Shown: one piece after another, positions 1,587 through 60,917 of the stretch
How positions within the stretch are numbered: position 1 is the stretch's first letter
Layout: each line of letters opens with the position of its first letter
Assembly (NCBI GenBank): GCA_017654855.1
Contig: CM030334.1
Span: forward strand, 3,224,001 to 3,288,000
Length of the DNA: 64,000 bases
Origin: Podospora anserina
Lineage: Eukaryota
Direction: 5' to 3'
The notes under the pieces: generated by a model
The model's database searches: none
What the model saw: the letters and a program-made list of their open reading frames with translations, nothing else
What the model was told of the DNA's origin: nothing
Translations under genes and position numbers: made by a program

Positions 1587-2926
1587 GGGTCAACTAACTA
1601 TTACCCGTCTTTATTACCTGGCCATTCCTGAGTAGGTAAACTGAGATTTTCGATTTATTAAAAAAGAATCAAGCGTTAAATAATTTAATGTAACTTACTC
1701 TATAATCTGACTCAATATAGTTATTGAAGGTTATGTCTCATACAGAGCTATAAGCTTTGTTTAGACACGCACTTACAGTGCTCGCATTAGTGGAAGACTT
1801 AATATCTAGTATCTATAGTTTACTATTGAAGCTTATAGCTACAGCGCCTTCCAACGCTAAGCAATAGAGTTATAGAGAGTAAATTTCTGTAGTTAGAGTG
1901 ATTTGTCTGCTATATACCAACTTTGACTTTGTAGTAAGGTTCATACTCGACTTTTATTGTATACCTCCAAGGGCCTCACAGTGCTTCGTATACTACAATA
2001 GGCAGATAAACTAGAGTTCAGCTTAGCAAGCTTTAATTTAGCTGCGTTTTGTTAAAAGAATATGTGCTTATGGCTATATAAAGCAGGGCAAATTTAGTTA
2101 CTAGCCTATCGAAAGTGTAGGTTACTGTAGGTCGATTAGCCCGCAAGTTGTTCCAGGCACTTACAGGGCCTTAAATGGCCTAAATATAAAATTTAGGCTA
2201 TTTTAATCTATTATAGCAGCAGATACAGAGCTTTGCAGTAGCCTGCTCTACTGAGTAGATACTTTGTGAAGTATTAAGTAAGCGCTAGATGGGTACTAGA
2301 TAGGCACTAAATAGTGCGGAGTAGGTATCAAATGGGTGCTAGAAGAGCATGTGATGGGTGCTGGATAGGTATGCTATGAGATACTTTTGCCTTGTGTAAC
2401 GCTTTTGTTAGGGCTGCTGCTACAAAATATTACAGCAGTAACTTACTGTAAAATAAGCCTAACGGGAACCCATTTTAACAACGGATATTTAGAGTTAAAA
2501 TTAAAATAAAGAGTTTATATAAAAAATATACAATTAACTTAAAATATTTCAATTAAATATATTGCATAATTAACATCACTATTAAAACTTACTAAATATA
2601 ATAGTTAATCCCGCTTTTTTAAGTTACTATTTTTTCTCAAATTTAAAAGTTTAAATCATAAAAATATTTAATTTTTATTTTTTAATAAAGTATTTAATAA
2701 TAATTGAAATATATTTCGGAAATAAATACTATAGTTTATAAACCTTAAAAATATAAATGAAAAAATTAAAGAAGCTTCAATTAAATAGTAAATTACAAAT
2801 AAATATCTTAAAGTTTACCAGTACGTTACTATTTTGATATTTATTAAGCGTAAGGCTTAGAAAAATTCTGAACTTGCCGACCCCGGAGTGGTTAGGTGAC
2901 AGAGAGGAGGTAATGGTCAGTTCACC
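1587..2926. mobile_element. RIP-degraded DNA transposon relic with ~60-bp imperfect terminal inverted repeats, flanked by TA
   Basis: Abrupt AT-rich, TpA-rich island. The left end 1587-1650 (GGGTCAACTAACTATTACCCGTCTTTATTACCTGGCCATTCCTGAGTAGGTAAACTGAGATTTT) aligns to the reverse complement of ~2861-2926 (GGTGAACTGACCATTACCTCCTCTCTGTCACCTAACCACTCCGGGGTCGGCAAGTTCAGAATTTT), mostly with transition mismatches. TA at 1585-1586 and 2927-2928. No intact ORF. Confidence 0.7.
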
Positions 2927-4964
2927 TACATGTGTAGACGAAATGTGGGGAAGACGTCGGTAATGCAACGGCGGTTTGGCTGGATATAGCACAGGTCTGA
3001 TATACTAGAGGAATGCAGGGAAAGGGGGGGTCCCTCCGTCCCGTCCTTGGTGTGCGGCGCTTTTGCAGGAATTTCGTCTCGAGTCTTGTTCGTCGGGATT
3101 CAGATCATGATCGCCTCGCCTCAGTCAGTGGAGATATATAGGTTGGATGGGCAGTGCTGGTGACACCCGCTGTCAGCTTTTCTGCTTGCTTCTCAAGATT
3201 CACCGTCTTGTCTTGAGATATCTTGACATAAACATCAGCATGGGCTGTGAGTGGAGGATCGGGAAATGCAATTGCTCTCTCGCGCCGCCCGAGTGCATGA
3301 TTGATTTTCTGTCTCGTTGCTGCAGCAGGCTCGAAACGGCCCTGTCGATGCAGCTCAAGGGAAGGGAGGTTCACCGAGCTCAGTGGTTCCTTCCACTCAC
3401 GAGACCTCAATCTGCTTCACCGGGATTCCAAGCTTTTTTTCCTCTCATCCAGCTTCCCCATCGCCTCATTGACCAACCCCAGCTCTCTCTCTCCCTCTCT
3501 CTCCCGCGGTCTGGATGCCCGTCGAATCACGCGAATATGTGCGTATGGCCTATGGCCAGCAACAAGTCTTGATGCAGGAATGCCGCATGCTGCTGTGCAA
3601 CCCACGGAGGAAGGATTGGCTTCGTTGAAGAAGGCTGCCCCCAGTGCCCCGCTCTCTCTAGGTCTCTCTCGTGTCTTACGCTGTCGCTGTCTAACATCCA
3701 TTTTGACGAAGAGGGTCTAACGGCCACCAAGACACATCACGCGGACCCCATGCTCGACGTTGAACCCGCACCCAAAGGTCAACTCTTAACACCAGCAAAA
3801 AGCCAGAGGGCAGTTCGCGCAAGAAGCTATGGCCATTTTTGCCTCCCCAACCACGACCTAGAAGCTCTGACGATCGAGATCCCAAAAAGATACAATCGTC
3901 ATATCTCAGTCACAAACAGGAGAGAGTCCTTCAAGAGGACATAAGTCAACTGACGATCAGCAAAGCCCCTGCATTGCATACCTCACCTACATACATACCA
4001 TGAGGAAAAGGCCCAAGCCCCTACCCTTGAGGGGACGCGGCTGGGGGTTGTACTTTCATCAGCCTAAATTGTTTCTCGAATGGGGCGGGCCCTTCGAGTG
4101 TGCTTCTTCTTCTCTGTTGAGGTGATGAGAGCGGGAAACCCCAGATTTCAATTTCCCCTAGGTTACTACCCCCCTGTCGCCACCACCAACCCCGACCCCT
4201 CCATTGATGAACCACAGACGTCAGTTGAACAAAGCTGGGACCCCGCGGGAGAGAGACGCCACGGCGGTTCGAGTTCTTATCAGAAAGAAACTACCCCGCT
4301 AAAAAGTTCACTTTTGACAGCAGGGCATCGTTTCTGCTGGGATCCGGCCTGGATTTGTTTTCCGCCCTTTCAAAGGGGAGGGGGGGTCGCTTTACCCCGG
4401 ATTTCTCGTTCGATCTGGATGTCACTTGTTGCTGTGAAAGTCTCACCAGCAAGCTTCTGCCATGCCATAATAGAATATGGGTTTTGTTTGTGTTTTGCAC
4501 GCGACATTTCCCAGATGCTTCCCTGAACGGCTGGGAAAGGCGAGCTCACGCCCTGATGCAAGTCGAAGCATCGAGAAGGACGACCGATCCCCTTTGAGGT
4601 CGTCGTCACCGAGGGATGATTTCATTATTGCCTCTTGGTAGATCTATGCAAGTTGCTTTGCCCACCGGTCTGGAGGTTTCGACGACGCCACGATATTGCT
4701 ACCCACACATGCTGCCACAGTGCTACTACATACATACAACGCTCTCTCTTTTTGGGGTAACGAGGTTGGGGATGATGATGATCACTTCCCTTTGGTGATT
4801 TCTCCAGCTGCAATTCGGGGCAAGACATGTTTGCGTTGACGGCAATTACACCACACGGCCTTCCAATTCTCCGCGTAACTCACCTGCCAGGTAATCACGC
4901 CGCCGGTCACGCCGAGAGTAAGCAAGTAGGAAGACGTAAACGGACGGATGCGGGGCCCTGTCTA

Positions 4965-55691: not shown

Positions 55692-56338
55692 TCATGATCG
55701 GTTCTTGTCTTTGCACGTCTCTTGCAGCCCTTGCAACCCCTCCAAGACCTGCTCGGGCAGTTTGGGGTTTGCCAAACGGCCGTAGCGGAGATCGCTGAGG
55801 TCGCCGACAGTTTTCTGGACGGACGCCAGCAGGGAGGCTTCCTCGGATCGGAGGAGCTGGAGCTGGGATTCGAGTTCGGAGATGGCGTCCTGGAGGGGGG
55901 GGAGGATGGATTGGAGGGTGTGGTTTTTGTTTTGGGAGGGGGGGAGGGTACCCAGCTTTTTTGGAGGAAGGGGGGGGGTGGCGCCGGTTAGTTATTGTAT
56001 GTGTTTGGGGGTGGGAGGGAGGTGAAACTAACCATTCTTTCAATGTCAATCTCGTCGTCTTGCTCTTGTGCTTGAGCTTGGGCTTCACGCCCGGCTTTTA
56101 GGACGTGGCGCCGCAGGGCTTTGCCTTGACGGGCTTGGGACGAGATTTCTTCGGATATGGTGTCGAGGAGGGTGTTGCGTTGGGATTGGAGGTCGCGGTA
56201 GAGGGTGCGGATATGGGGAGAGTGTTGCATGGGTTTGGGGAAGAGGGAGGTGAATTCTTGGAGGGAGATGATGGCGGGGAGTTGGGCGGGGATGAGGAGG
56301 TAGTTTGTTAGGATGGTGGTTTCGGTGATGGGGGGCAT
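55692..56338 (-). CDS. NKP2: Kinetochore CCAN subunit, Cnl2/Nkp2 family
   Basis: Exons 56338-56033 and 55955-55692; intron GTTAGT..ACTAAC..AAG. Motifs ETTILTNYLL..LPAIISLQEFTSLFP..IRTLYRDLQ and C-terminal VGDLSDLRYGRL. Confidence 0.85.
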
Positions 56339-56877
56339 TTTTTGTCTTTGTTTGTGAGATGTGTGGTGGTGAGATGATAAGTGGGATGATGAGTGAGATG
56401 ATGAGTGAGATTGATGAGTGAGATGATGGGTGGTGATTGGTGTGAGGTTGGCAGCTGGGAATGTTGTGTTTGATGAGAGGGTTGTAAGGTGGATAGATGG
56501 TGTGATGAGTCTATGTCAGTATCGAATGAGTTGGACTGTTGTAGAAGCATGGATATGAGTTTGAATGACGCGTAAAGTGGCTTGCTGCAGGCTGAAGGAA
56601 GTCGCTGAGAGGCGCTAGGGGGGTTGCTGCTTCGCGTGTTCCCGTGATCCGTGCTCTCAGAGATCCTTGGTTCCTATCTATCAACTCCCATCCCTGGCTG
56701 TTGTCAAGAGCCAAACACCCAAATCTTCCTGACTTTTCATTCACTTATCGTCGACAAACTGCCGACGCCGAGATCTCACAAACTCTAACCAAGGACCCGC
56801 AGATACTGCGTGTTTTCGACTTGCTCCCCTCGCCGCCGAGCATTTTCTGGGCTGCTTAGTCGTCGACTTTTTTTTTG

Positions 56878-56879
<2 letters not shown>

Positions 56880-56918
<39 letters not shown>
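56880..56918. repeat. (AG)n microsatellite in the NKP2/EAF3 divergent intergenic region
   Basis: About 19 AG units. Confidence 0.95.
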
Positions 56919-56923
<5 letters not shown>

Positions 56924-57050
56924 CGGTAACCACACTCCTTGATGAATCTCACTGGTCGCTTCATTCATTTTTATTGACGCCTATTTAGTTGTCTATCGAG
57001 ATTTTTGACGCGATCAAGACCTCTGGCGCAAAAGGAAAACTAGAATTTGC

Positions 57051-59586
57051 ATGATGGCTCCATCCAAAGCCACCCAGGCTCCCTTTGTCAAGGATGAGCG
57101 GGTCCTCTGCTTCCACATGGAGATGCTGTACGAGGCCAAAATCCTCGACGTTCAGGCCGCCGACAGTAGTGACGGCTGGCAGTACAAAATCCACTACAAG
57201 GGCTGGAAGTCCAGCTGGGATGACTGGGTCCCGCAGGACCGCGTTCGCAAATTCACAGACGAGAACAAGGAGCTGGCTTCGCAACTCATGGCCCAGTACA
57301 AGAACCTCCAGTCCGGCAAATCGAAGGGACCTAAGAAGGGAACGACTGCTGCTCGCACCGGTGGTTCCGACATGAGTTCTGCTCGTGGCAGTGAGGAGCG
57401 TACCCAGCAGGGGGCGACGACGGCCAGCGGGCGAGGCAATCAGAGACGTGCTCGTGATTATGATCTTGAACAGGTGAGTTGGCATTTGCATTTGCTTACA
57501 TTGTTTGTCTTTCTGCGACACAGTCGGGCCGGGTGCCTTCCTTTTTGCATTTTACACACACAACCATCTGCCTCTTGAAACACAATATCTTGAATTCTGG
57601 AGGAGAGCTTTCATGGGTGGTCGACTGCCCGGGACATCACTTTTGAAGCATAACTTGGAGGTATTACTTGGAGTTGGGACGAAAGAGATTTGGTGAATCA
57701 ACACTGGGCCGGGGGGATCAGAGCAACAACATTCGACTGTGGGTGAATAAGGAGGGTCACTCTCTGGCGTTCTCCTCACAATAAGACCCGCGTTCAGCAC
57801 CGCACACAATAGTAGCATGGCGTTGCTCCCTCTGCGACTGTCCAGCTGTTTCAAGCCAGCCCTCGCCGACTACATCTTCTTGAACAATTCACGCCCACCA
57901 ATCTCCAATCTCGGCGTTGCGGACCTTTTCCCACCACAATACCCTCAGTCGCAGGACCACGACATCGACACATCTCGGCGAAAGGAGCAATTTTCAAACA
58001 CACGTACAATATCTACAAATTGTCGTGATCCGCCGCTGCAATGCCTCCTCTTCGAAGATCAACTCGCGTCGTCCCTCCTCGGCCTGCCCCAACCACTCGA
58101 GTCACTCGAGCCACCAAAGCAAAGATGATCCAGCCAAAGGAAGACGAGACAATTGAGGAAAAGCTTGCGCGGTACGCTGCTGAAGCCGACTTGCACGACA
58201 ACCTTACTGTGCTTCCAACCCCTGCGACTTCGGTCTATGTTAAAAACGGCCGCATCAATTTTGATGATCGCTACGTGATGAAGTCTCAGCGCTCCGACAA
58301 GGGCAAGATTGGCATCAATCACCCCAAGATTCTCAAAGCCAGACAGCAGGGCGTACCCCCACAGGTGATGGCGCAGATTGAACGCAACTGGGAGTATATC
58401 GACCCCAGCTTCAACCCCCCCCTCGCCGGACTCCCTGCCGAGGTTCGATACCCGGACCGGGTGCCTCACTTCAAGTCTGGGCAGCCTGGTGCTGCCGACA
58501 CCCTCTTGAAGTTCGAACAAGCGACCCGAGTTTTTCATTGCAAGCTCCAGAGGATGGTGTTCAACATCCAGCAGTTCATTCTGTCCTGCGGGGAAGTAGT
58601 CGACGAGGCTAGCGAGGACACCTCCCCGCTTGCCTTTGAGCGGGTTTTTGCTGTTCCTCGTGGCTGGTTTATCTCTTCAGACAAGGTGTTGGCCCCCAGG
58701 GCTTATCGGTTGATTCCCGATTCTGTATGTTTCTAACTGTCATGACGACTACCTTCGACACAAGCGTTTGGAGGATACAGCCTTTAGCTTTTTCTTTATC
58801 ATTCGTCCAAACTATCGATCCGAGTGGATTGATAGCACATCCTATGTCCAGTGGCAGGGCGCTTCTTTGGTTTGGTTTGATTTCTGAAATATACAGCAAG
58901 CTAACATGTTACATAGGAGGACAACTTCCACAACCGCCCCTCGATCAATATCCCTCTCCCCGACCACATGAAGGCTCTCTTGGTCGATGACTGGGAGAAC
59001 GTCACCAAGAACCAGCAACTGGTGCCCCTGCCCCATGCTCATCCCGTCAGCGAGATTCTGGACGACTATCTCGCCTACGAGCGCCCTCACCGTGAGGAGG
59101 GTTCATCTGCCTATGACATCTTGGACGAGACTGTTTCGGGTCTCCGCGAGTACTTTGATCGCTGCTTGGGCCGCATTCTGCTCTACAGGCATGTCGTTCT
59201 TTGAGCTCTTTTGGTAGGCCGTCGACTGACTGATATCGTAGATTCGAGCGTGGCCAATACCATGAGATGCACCAGTTGTGGAACTCCTCCGACCCCAACC
59301 ACACTTGTGCCAGCGACACCTACGGTGCTGAGCACCTGACTCGTCTCCTTGGTATGTTTTCTTCCTACACTCCTGCACAATTGAGGAGCGTGCTAACCAC
59401 ATCCCGTATACAGTCTCGCTTCCCGAGCTTATCGCGCAGACCAACATGGATCAGCAGTCCGTCAACCGCCTCCGCGACGAGCTGGAGACGTTCACAAAGT
59501 GGTTCTCCCGTCAGCATTCTCGCTACTTCGTCAACGAGTACGAGCAGCCCGGCAATGACTACGTGGATGCGGCGAAGAGCACTTAG
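57051..59586 (+). CDS. EAF3: Chromatin modification protein Eaf3 / MRG15 (chromo-barrel + MRG domain)
   Basis: Exons 57051-57473, 58917-59188, 59242-59351, 59414-59586. Chromo-barrel ERVLCFHMEMLYEAK..YKIHYKGWKSSWDDWV. MRG domain LLVDDWENVTKNQQL..LGRILLYRFER..YGAEHLTRLLVSLPELIAQTNMD. Confidence 0.95.
58041..58736 (+). CDS. Orphan ORF nested in EAF3 intron 1; candidate alternative first exon (58041-58724) or independent nested gene
   Basis: 231-aa ATG-initiated ORF with coding-like, C/G-ending codons. A phase-0 GTATGT donor at 58725 is compatible with the phase-0 EAF3 acceptor at 58916. Confidence 0.55.
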   Translation: MPPLRRSTRVVPPRPAPTTRVTRATKAKMIQPKEDETIEEKLARYAAEADLHDNLTVLPTPATSVYVKNGRINFDDRYVMKSQRSDKGKIGINHPKILKARQQGVPPQVMAQIERNWEYIDPSFNPPLAGLPAEVRYPDRVPHFKSGQPGAADTLLKFEQATRVFHCKLQRMVFNIQQFILSCGEVVDEASEDTSPLAFERVFAVPRGWFISSDKVLAPRAYRLIPDSVCF

Positions 59587-60917
59587 GATAATGCTCCTCC
59601 TCTTGCATCCCCTAGCGCGGCGTCGTCGACCCTGTCGGAGCTCAGCTCGCCCGACTCATCGGATTAGATGATTGCGATGCAGAGGTGCAAGCGTCTGGCA
59701 TGACAGCGATGGATACGGCTGAAGAGGCAGTCGTCGGGTTATCCACTTGAGTGAGGGTATCAGCAACCGACATCGGCTTTTTCTTTGGTATTTTACTTGC
59801 CACCCACGGGCAAAAGCCTTGTTCATTCTTCATCACTTATCAAAGTCACCATCTCGATTTCGACATCAGCCACATCTACAGTATCACCACACAAACTTGA
59901 GTTTTTCCTCCTCCACAAATTCCTCTGGACATATCTGCTTCACTTCGGTGTAGCTTGGCCACTCTTTTTGCTTGATTAATATCCGAAAGATCTGCCACTC
60001 TGGTTAGATGCGACTAGGATGGTCAGGGAAGAAGAGAGAGGTAGAGAGGGAAAGACTGCTTCGTCAATCAATTCATCACACTGCACACCACAACGTCTTC
60101 TACACACTGCACAACCCAAAAGCCCGAGTTTTTAATTTCACCAAGCGACATTTTCTTCCTTTTTCTCTCTGGGCTTCATTTTTCCGTTGTTCAAGGGGGG
60201 TTAGGATTGATATCAACTGGGTGGTTCTCTGGGAAGGGTTGTCTTTTTTTTTTCTGTCTTTTTTTTTGTTTTCGACTATTGTGCACTTTTAGGATCCAGG
60301 TAATCATCAGCTCATCATGACTGGGCAAGCAAGCCGTGAGGCAAAAACAAGGCCAGTTTTTCGTTTTCGACAGGTCAATCAGAGGGAAAGGTCTCGGTTT
60401 TATTCACTCAGAAAGAAGCATTTGATAGGAGCCAGGGAAGCTGTGGTTGGTGGACAAGGAGGGTACAAGGGTGAGCTTGGACTTACTTGGGAAAACTTGC
60501 TGTGGCTTTCGGGGTTCTTGGGATTTTTTTTTGATGGGTAGGGAAGAGGCGAATTATAAGAGACTGTTCTCAATTATTGTTTGTTGGGGTGTGGTGATGG
60601 TGATGTGACGTGCTTTGTGCTGGCTTTTGCTTGTGGTTTTGATGTGGTTTTTACTGGTCTCTTTGGGGGGTTGAAGAGAGGTTAGGTATATGAGTTGGTA
60701 ATGTGTCAATGTGTTGGTGGCATCTCTGGAGAGCACCCATTTGATGAACTCTCCTCTCACCTCCAACTCCGACATCACGTATTCGAGCGGTAGTGTCATG
60801 CGTTCATTTTCCTTTATTTCCCTTTTGGTATCCCCCAACAATATCATACATTCCCTTCCCCTTCCCTTCCCTTCCCTTACCTTCCCTTCCCTCTTTCCTC
60901 CCCCTTTCATCCCCCAT

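Follow-up and report, generated by a model that had tools for sequence, protein, structure and literature searches.

A conserved coding exon within intron 1 of EAF3 and a probable chromodomain-less Eaf3 isoform in Podospora anserina

Background

Eaf3 couples acetylation by NuA4, deacetylation by Rpd3S and, in filamentous fungi, the Ash1/Polycomb-type silencing to methylation of lysine 36 of histone H3 (H3K36me). The proteins of the Eaf3/MRG15 family, such as Eaf3 of Saccharomyces cerevisiae and of Magnaporthe oryzae, combine a chromo barrel with an MRG domain, and so does the canonical product of the gene described here. This gene, EAF3, is situated in a stretch of 64 kb of Podospora anserina DNA (assembly GCA_017654855.1, contig CM030334.1, positions 3,224,001 to 3,288,000 of the forward strand), which is called the window in the following and to which all coordinates refer. 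The first intron of the gene contains an open reading frame (ORF) of 228 codons that can be spliced in frame onto the MRG domain, and a second protein form, not described until now, is probably produced from EAF3 in this way.

The closest known counterpart of such a form is the vertebrate MRGX (MORF4L2), a chromodomain-less paralogue of MRG15 encoded by a separate gene. The likeness is that an MRG domain is preceded by a different N-terminal region instead of the chromodomain, and by analogy the same complexes would be expected to be joined without the reading of H3K36me. The difference is in the gene structure, since MRGX is a gene of its own whereas the variant in the window is an exon inside EAF3 intron 1, with the acceptor and exons 2-4 shared between the two forms.

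The annotation of M. oryzae divided EAF3 into two genes in tandem, MGG_06716 with the chromodomain and MGG_06717 with the MRG domain, and complementation showed that they form a single gene with a coding region of 2.7 kb (PMC11343894). This length agrees with a long intron 1 in M. oryzae too, as found in the window. The split is taken as an annotation error in the accessible part of that paper, where neither an intronic coding exon nor a second isoform is mentioned (PMC11343894). The accessible part of a study of Zymoseptoria tritici handles Eaf3 as a single protein with chromodomain and MRG domain (PMC10553808). The literature searches found no paper treating both Eaf3 and Podospora, and no description of a chromodomain-less fungal Eaf3 isoform or of a coding exon in an EAF3 intron.

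The explanation that fits the observations best, and that is considered fairly likely, is a conserved alternative first exon giving rise to a minor, chromodomain-less Eaf3 isoform with an undescribed domain.

Results

The intronic exon and its reading frame

The sequence of positions 56800-60400 was read and its open reading frames were listed. Intron 1 of EAF3 (57474..58916, plus strand, GT..AG) is 1443 nt long, as given with correct coordinates in the initial annotation, and the other introns in the coding region are 53 and 62 nt. It has the donor GTGAGT at 57474, a GCTAAC motif at 58900-58905 and the acceptor ACATAG ending at 58916. The alternative first coding exon (P0001; 58041..58724, plus strand, 228 codons) is located inside this intron and is defined by its translation, codon score and homologues. 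Reading the sequence confirmed the earlier claim of an ATG at 58041 and of a GTATGT donor at 58725 in phase 0, directly after codon 228. This is the only GTRNGT site inside the ORF. The in-frame stop reported upstream of the ORF is also present, as TGA at 58026-58028, and the frame between stops is 58029..58736.

The predicted in-frame splice, with 58041-58724 joined to 58917 onward, gives an open coding sequence of 1239 nt and a product of 412 aa, as had been proposed. The join reads ...IPDS|EDNFHNRPSINI (IPDS|EDNFHN at the boundary). The terminal intron of the alternative transcript (58725..58916, plus strand, 192 nt) has the phase-0 donor GTATGT and uses the same CTAAC branch site (58901-58905) and the same acceptor (58916) as intron 1. 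The predicted product contains the MRG domain without a chromodomain, and P0001 itself matches no Pfam family.

The codon score, the GC periodicity and the homologues of the intronic ORF show that its frame is not open by chance alone. The codon table was built from 22 long frames of the window, an imperfect training set that includes antisense shadows. With this table the ORF scored 0.227 bits/codon in its own frame (0.307 for the domain part and 0.230 for the tail), to be compared with 0.242 and 0.337 bits/codon for EAF3 exons 1 and 2. The parts of the intron flanking the ORF on both sides had negative scores in all six frames. The GC content by codon position is 0.605/0.439/0.627 in the ORF and 0.597/0.400/0.735 in the EAF3 exons, which is the same pattern.

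The ORF can be divided into a basic N-terminus (58041-58127), a conserved domain (about 58128-58460, residues 30-140), delimited by the homologues, and a lineage-specific tail (58461-58724, residues 141-228), all on the plus strand. Residues 2-124 of a Podospora australis protein (P0005) align to the window from 58077 onward, which indicates that the basic N-terminal part is translated too. The 5' part of intron 1 (57474..58040, plus strand) may function as an internal promoter followed by an AUG-poor leader. Upstream of the ORF start there are 2 ATGs, where shuffled sequence would be expected to contain 8 (P ~0.01), and in the corresponding locus of another fungus, L001, there were 0 against 4 expected in positions 2264-2791 (P ~0.016); this depletion test is weak, the boundaries having been partly picked after looking. 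From about 57700 to 58150 the sequence is C-rich with a negative GC skew.

Transcripts of the locus

The RNA data were contigs from the runs X1, X5, X6 and X10, which represent four studies and were found among 24 coded runs. The reason for taking these four as complementary DNA was that all three EAF3 introns are removed in their contigs. Contigs of this kind give neither ends nor strand and drop rare forms, and the depth is one figure per contig.

The long intron 1 is skipped in all four runs, with contig depths of 60 (X1), 92.7 (X5), 61.1 (X6) and 25.8 (X10), and introns 2 and 3 are spliced in all four as well. In X6 and X10 single contigs join 57471/3 to 58915/7 and run through exons 2-4, while X1 and X5 have junction contigs. 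The contigs thus place the chromo barrel and the MRG domain of the canonical isoform on one mRNA.

The junction 58724->58917, which the initial annotation had put forward as a check, was looked for in the contigs and was found in one of the four runs, with GT..AG ends and 192 nt skipped. The contig (X5) is 588 nt long with a depth of 6.1, and 558 nt lie on 58167-58724 and 30 nt past the joint. The depth of the intronic contigs is 2-16, as against 26-108 for the exons, and the 5' part of the intron (57474..58040) has low-depth contig cover in all four runs. Gaps in the cover (57890-58829 in X10 and 58736-58829 in X5) were not counted as evidence. The contig with exons 2-4 is deeper than that with exon 1, by 7 in X1 and by 15.6 in X5, which is near the intronic depth; this excess was not used as evidence because depth is a single figure per contig.

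Conservation of the nested position

The nesting could be compared in a second locus, L001, a contig of 4195 nt from another fungus that was retrieved by a metagenome scan with the family protein P0011. The same kind of scan with P0006, another family member, gave no match. In L001 the chromo exon (1571-1972) has 73.5% amino acid identity to that of the window and ends ...DYELEQ|GTAAGT, and the MRG exon starts at 3756 with 78% identity. The ORF of the family (2837-3601) is situated between them and contains a candidate phase-0 donor, GTAGGT at 3548. The acceptor, CTAAC...CCAG|GAGGAT at 3755, is likewise in phase 0 and the resulting join, ...SHR|EDNFHNRP, is open. The position between the chromo exon and the first MRG exon, with an in-phase donor, is thus found in both loci for which DNA was available.

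As a protein the window ORF (P0001) matches P0011 with 41% identity over 97 aa (E 2e-17). When the DNA of the window and of L001 was aligned, only the EAF3 exons and the upstream neighbour aligned, not the ORF. The nested, in-phase arrangement is therefore old, because it has been kept while the ORF has come to be 41% identical in protein and unalignable as DNA.

Deposited gene models

Five of the seven named GenBank relatives join the domain to MRG, and four of these five are without a chromodomain. The exon after the join has a common start in the five fused models, E(D/E)(N/A)FH(N/S)RPS. Two Podospora models named 'Esa1p-associated factor', with 412 aa and hidden in the cluster of the ORF call P0003, have exactly the predicted join. 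P0029 and P0030 are, in the order listed, XP_062745182.1/KAK4656207.1 of P. pseudocomata and XP_062733906.1/KAK4644930.1 of P. bellae-mahoneyi, and 2 and 4 residue differences, respectively, separate the models of these two species from the window ORF. P0052 is a protein of 509 aa from Thermothielavioides terrestris (SPQ27267.1) with the join ...SLQIE|EENFHNRPS. P0044, from Camillea tinctor (KAI5925499.1, 465 aa), has the join ...NRPIQ|EDAFHSRPS and PF05712 as its only precomputed Pfam family; it matched with E 6.6e-7 in the profile search and 4e-8 in the pairwise comparison. Both P0052 and P0044 are collinear with the window ORF and exons 2-4, but not with exon 1. The fifth model, P0047 from Staphylotrichum longicolle (KAG7294377.1, 531 aa), joins after ...EADF.

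The deposited models share with the predicted product of the window the fusion of a homologous domain to MRG at the same exon boundary. There is one model per locus, named Esa1p-associated factor, EAF3, MRG-domain protein or hypothetical protein, and the models miss the chromodomain form of the same locus, which here is the main mRNA in all four runs. GenBank therefore contains the 412-aa product already, in the form of automatic models that come without an explanation; the novelty lies in the interpretation, which comprises two isoforms, a conserved domain family and a conserved nested position.

An undescribed domain family

Conservation of the ORF, the second check proposed in the initial annotation, was looked for with a full HMMER scan of 1.84 billion representatives, which gave 26 matches at E <= 1e-3, 6 of them at E <= 1e-10, covering approximately residues 40-140 of the query. 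The named homologues belong to Podospora australis, Madurella, Thermothielavioides, Staphylotrichum and Camillea, and many more come from unnamed contigs. None of the 25 matches other than P0003 had a Pfam family at threshold. The family alignment shows a basic N-terminus rich in T, R and S, then the domain and finally variable tails that are acidic or rich in S and P. The domain is about 100 residues long, with the blocks LPT..TS.Y, FDDRY, HPKI and NIPLAG and with the invariant residues H94, A100, P127, A129 and G130 (alignments A1 and A5). The finding defines a protein domain family without a Pfam entry.

One of the matches was rejected as a homologue. P0004, a protein of 107 aa from a Logan contig, aligned to 58125-58445 and counted as 63% identical, differs by P to F/L, A to V, R to C, S to F, H to Y and T to I throughout, and represents the window ORF itself after C-to-T conversion. 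Judging from these changes it is a bisulfite-type read assembly, a database artefact that is not independent among the 26 matches.

The word-based and the profile searches of proteins missed most of the family that was found with HMMER. The word search for near relatives gave one match among 667 candidates, P0003, an ORF call of 203 aa that is 99% identical and reads past the donor to ...SVCF*, and the profile search gave 8 matches among 8000 candidates. Fused forms surfaced only as hidden members of clusters. The raw ORF calls share a signature of reading through the donor, in that they end in or contain V-[C/R/G], which is a translated GTNNGT with G at position +5. Three comparisons confirmed that the signature marks the splice point, namely those of P0003 with the window, of P0011 with L001 and of P0049 (...EADF|VRL) with P0047 (...EADF|EDNFHN).

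Two further features were seen in proteins of the family from JGI/IMG. P0006 (120 aa) consists of the new domain only and ends ...PAFVCLF, yet it is named 'mortality factor 4-like protein 1', which suggests that the reference sets used for naming already contain fusions of the domain with MRG. P0012, P0041 and P0042, which belong to one lineage, have a tail of SEPDQ units repeated in tandem behind the domain; the copy number varies between these proteins, which are otherwise 90-95% identical.

Discussion

Two mRNAs from one gene

The initial annotation interpreted the ORF as part of an isoform in which it is spliced onto MRG, and this interpretation is supported by the junction in the RNA contig and by the conservation of the ORF. 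The following mechanism is proposed. The major mRNA starts upstream and has the chromo-barrel exon (57054-57473) joined to the MRG exons by removal of 1443 nt. The minor mRNA would start inside intron 1 and be translated from the ATG at 58041 through the exon of 228 codons, after which the GTATGT donor at 58725 would be used with the branch site and acceptor of intron 1, removing 192 nt. In the 412-aa product the chromo barrel would be swapped for a basic stretch, the conserved domain and a lineage-specific tail, with the MRG domain unchanged. Such an isoform could enter the MRG-dependent complexes (NuA4, Rpd3S and Ash1) through the shared MRG domain without reading H3K36me, and the new module could supply another tether or partner. 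A retargeting of NuA4 or Rpd3S and a stage-specific expression, as suggested in the initial annotation, would be further possibilities. The data show the ORF with its coding character and its conservation, the conserved nested position and phase, and the presence of the junction in RNA, whereas the internal start site, the translation and the function of this isoform are what we infer.

Several observations weigh against the explanation by an alternative first exon. The runs are not recorded as RNA, and their kinds are guesses. The support from the junction is thin, with a single contig of low depth in one run, and its short side is one letter under the rule of 31 letters for bridging. Contigs of X1 (58246-58944) and X6 (58660-58810) cross the donor at 58725 without being spliced there, so that the intronic cover could be pre-mRNA or intron retention, and another X1 contig passes from exon 1 into intron 1 with no break (57445-58252), so that the junction could stem from a transcript begun upstream. 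The deposited fused models are automatic predictions and not experiments, and the Staphylotrichum model (P0047) also keeps the chromo exon. Two relatives are deposited as stand-alone proteins, P0005 (P. australis, KAK4189923.1) and P0023 (Madurella mycetomatis, KXX79986.1, partial); P0005 ends ...IVCF, like the read-through of the window. The word search for longer proteins found 0 fused forms among 2035 candidates. Outside Podospora the tail (residues 141-228) shows no conservation.

The structure of the new domain adds to these points. The AF2 models had low confidence (pTM 0.29 for the 228 aa and 0.39 for the domain of 119 aa), with a small hairpin besides three confident helices, which together do not make up a compact fold. 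No relative of the domain was found in the searches of Pfam and the Protein Data Bank (PDB): Foldseek gave no match in the PDB at E <= 0.001, the best E in the PDB profile search was 0.93, and the wide structure comparison with VIA-align gave a best Z of 2.6. The best score in the protein atlas was 0.86, with NTF2-like clusters, which is below the level of trust. The prediction of a complex between the new module and the MRG domain, run without alignments and counted neither for nor against docking, gave a score of 0.06 and a mark of 0.34. The function of the alternative isoform, finally, is wholly a matter of what we infer.

Alternative explanations

The ORF could be an independent gene nested in the EAF3 intron, with a protein ending ...IPDSVCF* and with splicing to exon 2 as an occasional by-product. 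This agrees with the contigs of X1 and X6 that are unspliced across the donor, with the two stand-alone deposits and with the domain having a conserved identity of its own and no Pfam link to MRG. The initial annotation had considered a nested gene of this kind as an orphan, which is wrong in any case, as there are homologues beyond the species and a conserved domain family of about 100 residues. In both loci with DNA, however, the frame is open exactly to the phase-0 donor. The read-through tails differ from each other and look non-coding, and the 3' part of the intron scores -1.10 bits/codon in the frame of the ORF. The majority of the named models join the domain to MRG, every relative with a known context sits in EAF3, and no free-standing copy was found elsewhere in the window, the search having been confined to these 64 kb. 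A nested gene is consequently regarded as unlikely.

Splicing noise on a decaying relic is another explanation, in which the ORF is a remnant of no present function, with a strong cryptic donor that is used stochastically in a long, slowly removed intron. The low depth, approximately 5-10% of that of the exon contigs, the presence of the junction in a single run and the fast change of the sequence (41% identity for the ORF, 73-78% for the EAF3 exons) would all be expected of such a relic. A relic would be expected neither to have an unbroken frame in the window, L001 and each of the 7 copies of the Podospora complex (0-4 substitutions and no stops) nor to keep invariant residues across relatives from Sordariales and Xylariales. 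The codon usage resembles that of expressed exons and the splice phase is conserved, and this explanation is quite improbable.

That the ORF is an internal cassette exon, giving chromo barrel, new domain and MRG in one protein as the 531-aa Staphylotrichum model and the X1 transcripts running from exon 1 into the intron might suggest, is very improbable in the window, where the in-frame TGA at 58026 before the ATG and the six in-frame AG sites at 58124-58163, which have no CTRAY branch motif in the upstream 45 nt, argue against it, as do the absence of an exon 1-to-ORF joint in the four runs (from contigs that drop rare forms) and the lack of the chromo exon in four of the five fused models.

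Implications of a second isoform

With an alternative first exon as the preferred explanation, a more general proposal can be made tentatively, at somewhat less than even confidence. In Sordariomycetes, at least in Sordariales and Xylariales, a single EAF3 gene may encode two readers from two promoters, the second form having an undescribed, fast-evolving domain of about 100 residues that replaces the H3K36me reader on the MRG scaffold.

If this is true, the NuA4, Rpd3S and Ash1 complexes would exist in versions that are guided by H3K36me and versions that are independent of it. A conserved isoform with the docking domain but a swapped reader would give the complexes a second mode of targeting. 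The published eaf3 deletions of filamentous fungi would have removed both versions at once. Knock-outs of eaf3 would need to be read again in this light, as a deletion of MRG removes both forms and a deletion of the chromo exon one. Two forms would also explain why the locus has repeatedly been split or mis-joined, as in the two M. oryzae genes, the Podospora models of 412 aa and the Staphylotrichum model of 531 aa.

Other features of the locus

The canonical EAF3 model has four exons, with a coding sequence of 975 nt and a protein of 324 aa. Coding exon 1 (57054..57473, plus strand, 140 codons) encodes the chromo barrel and a basic linker and belongs to the canonical isoform only. Its protein (P0002) matches PF22732 with E 1.6e-21 and 76.6 bits (cut-off 28) and PF11717 with E 7.3e-9. 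Exon 2 (58917..59188), in which the MRG domain starts, is common to both isoforms and alone matches PF05712 with E 5.9e-32, at positions 10-104 of 190 in the profile; the model is completed by exons 3 and 4. Intron 2 (59189..59241) is 53 nt, exon 3 (59242..59351) continues the MRG domain, intron 3 (59352..59413, GT..AG) is 62 nt and exon 4 (59414..59586) contains the end of the domain and the stop codon. These features are all on the plus strand and are given by the gene model and the joints in the RNA. With an N-terminal chromo barrel and a C-terminal MRG domain both present, the canonical isoform has the domain composition of Eaf3/MRG15, and from its family it would be a subunit of NuA4 and Rpd3S that binds H3K36me.

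Intron 2 has a GC-AG structure with the donor GCATGT and is spliced in all four runs, and its counterpart in L001 has a GT donor. An antisense ORF opposite the intronic exon (58059-58676, minus strand, 205 codons, stop-free) was rejected as a shadow frame, as it mirrors the periodicity of the sense strand and scores lower. Positions 56900-59800 had no match in Rfam at E <= 1, so that no snoRNA or similar RNA is indicated in the intron.

In the 5' untranslated region there is a further intron of about 62 nt (56927-56988, GT..AG; region 56880-56988 of the window). A loose contig end, ...AGAGAGCGAGAC, is joined at 56988 in X1, X5 and X10. The noncoding first exon includes a (GA)n microsatellite and ends at approximately 56925/6. 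The upstream neighbour of EAF3 is syntenic, with 73% nucleotide identity over 166 nt between 56174-56339 of the window and 666-828 of L001, in the same orientation.

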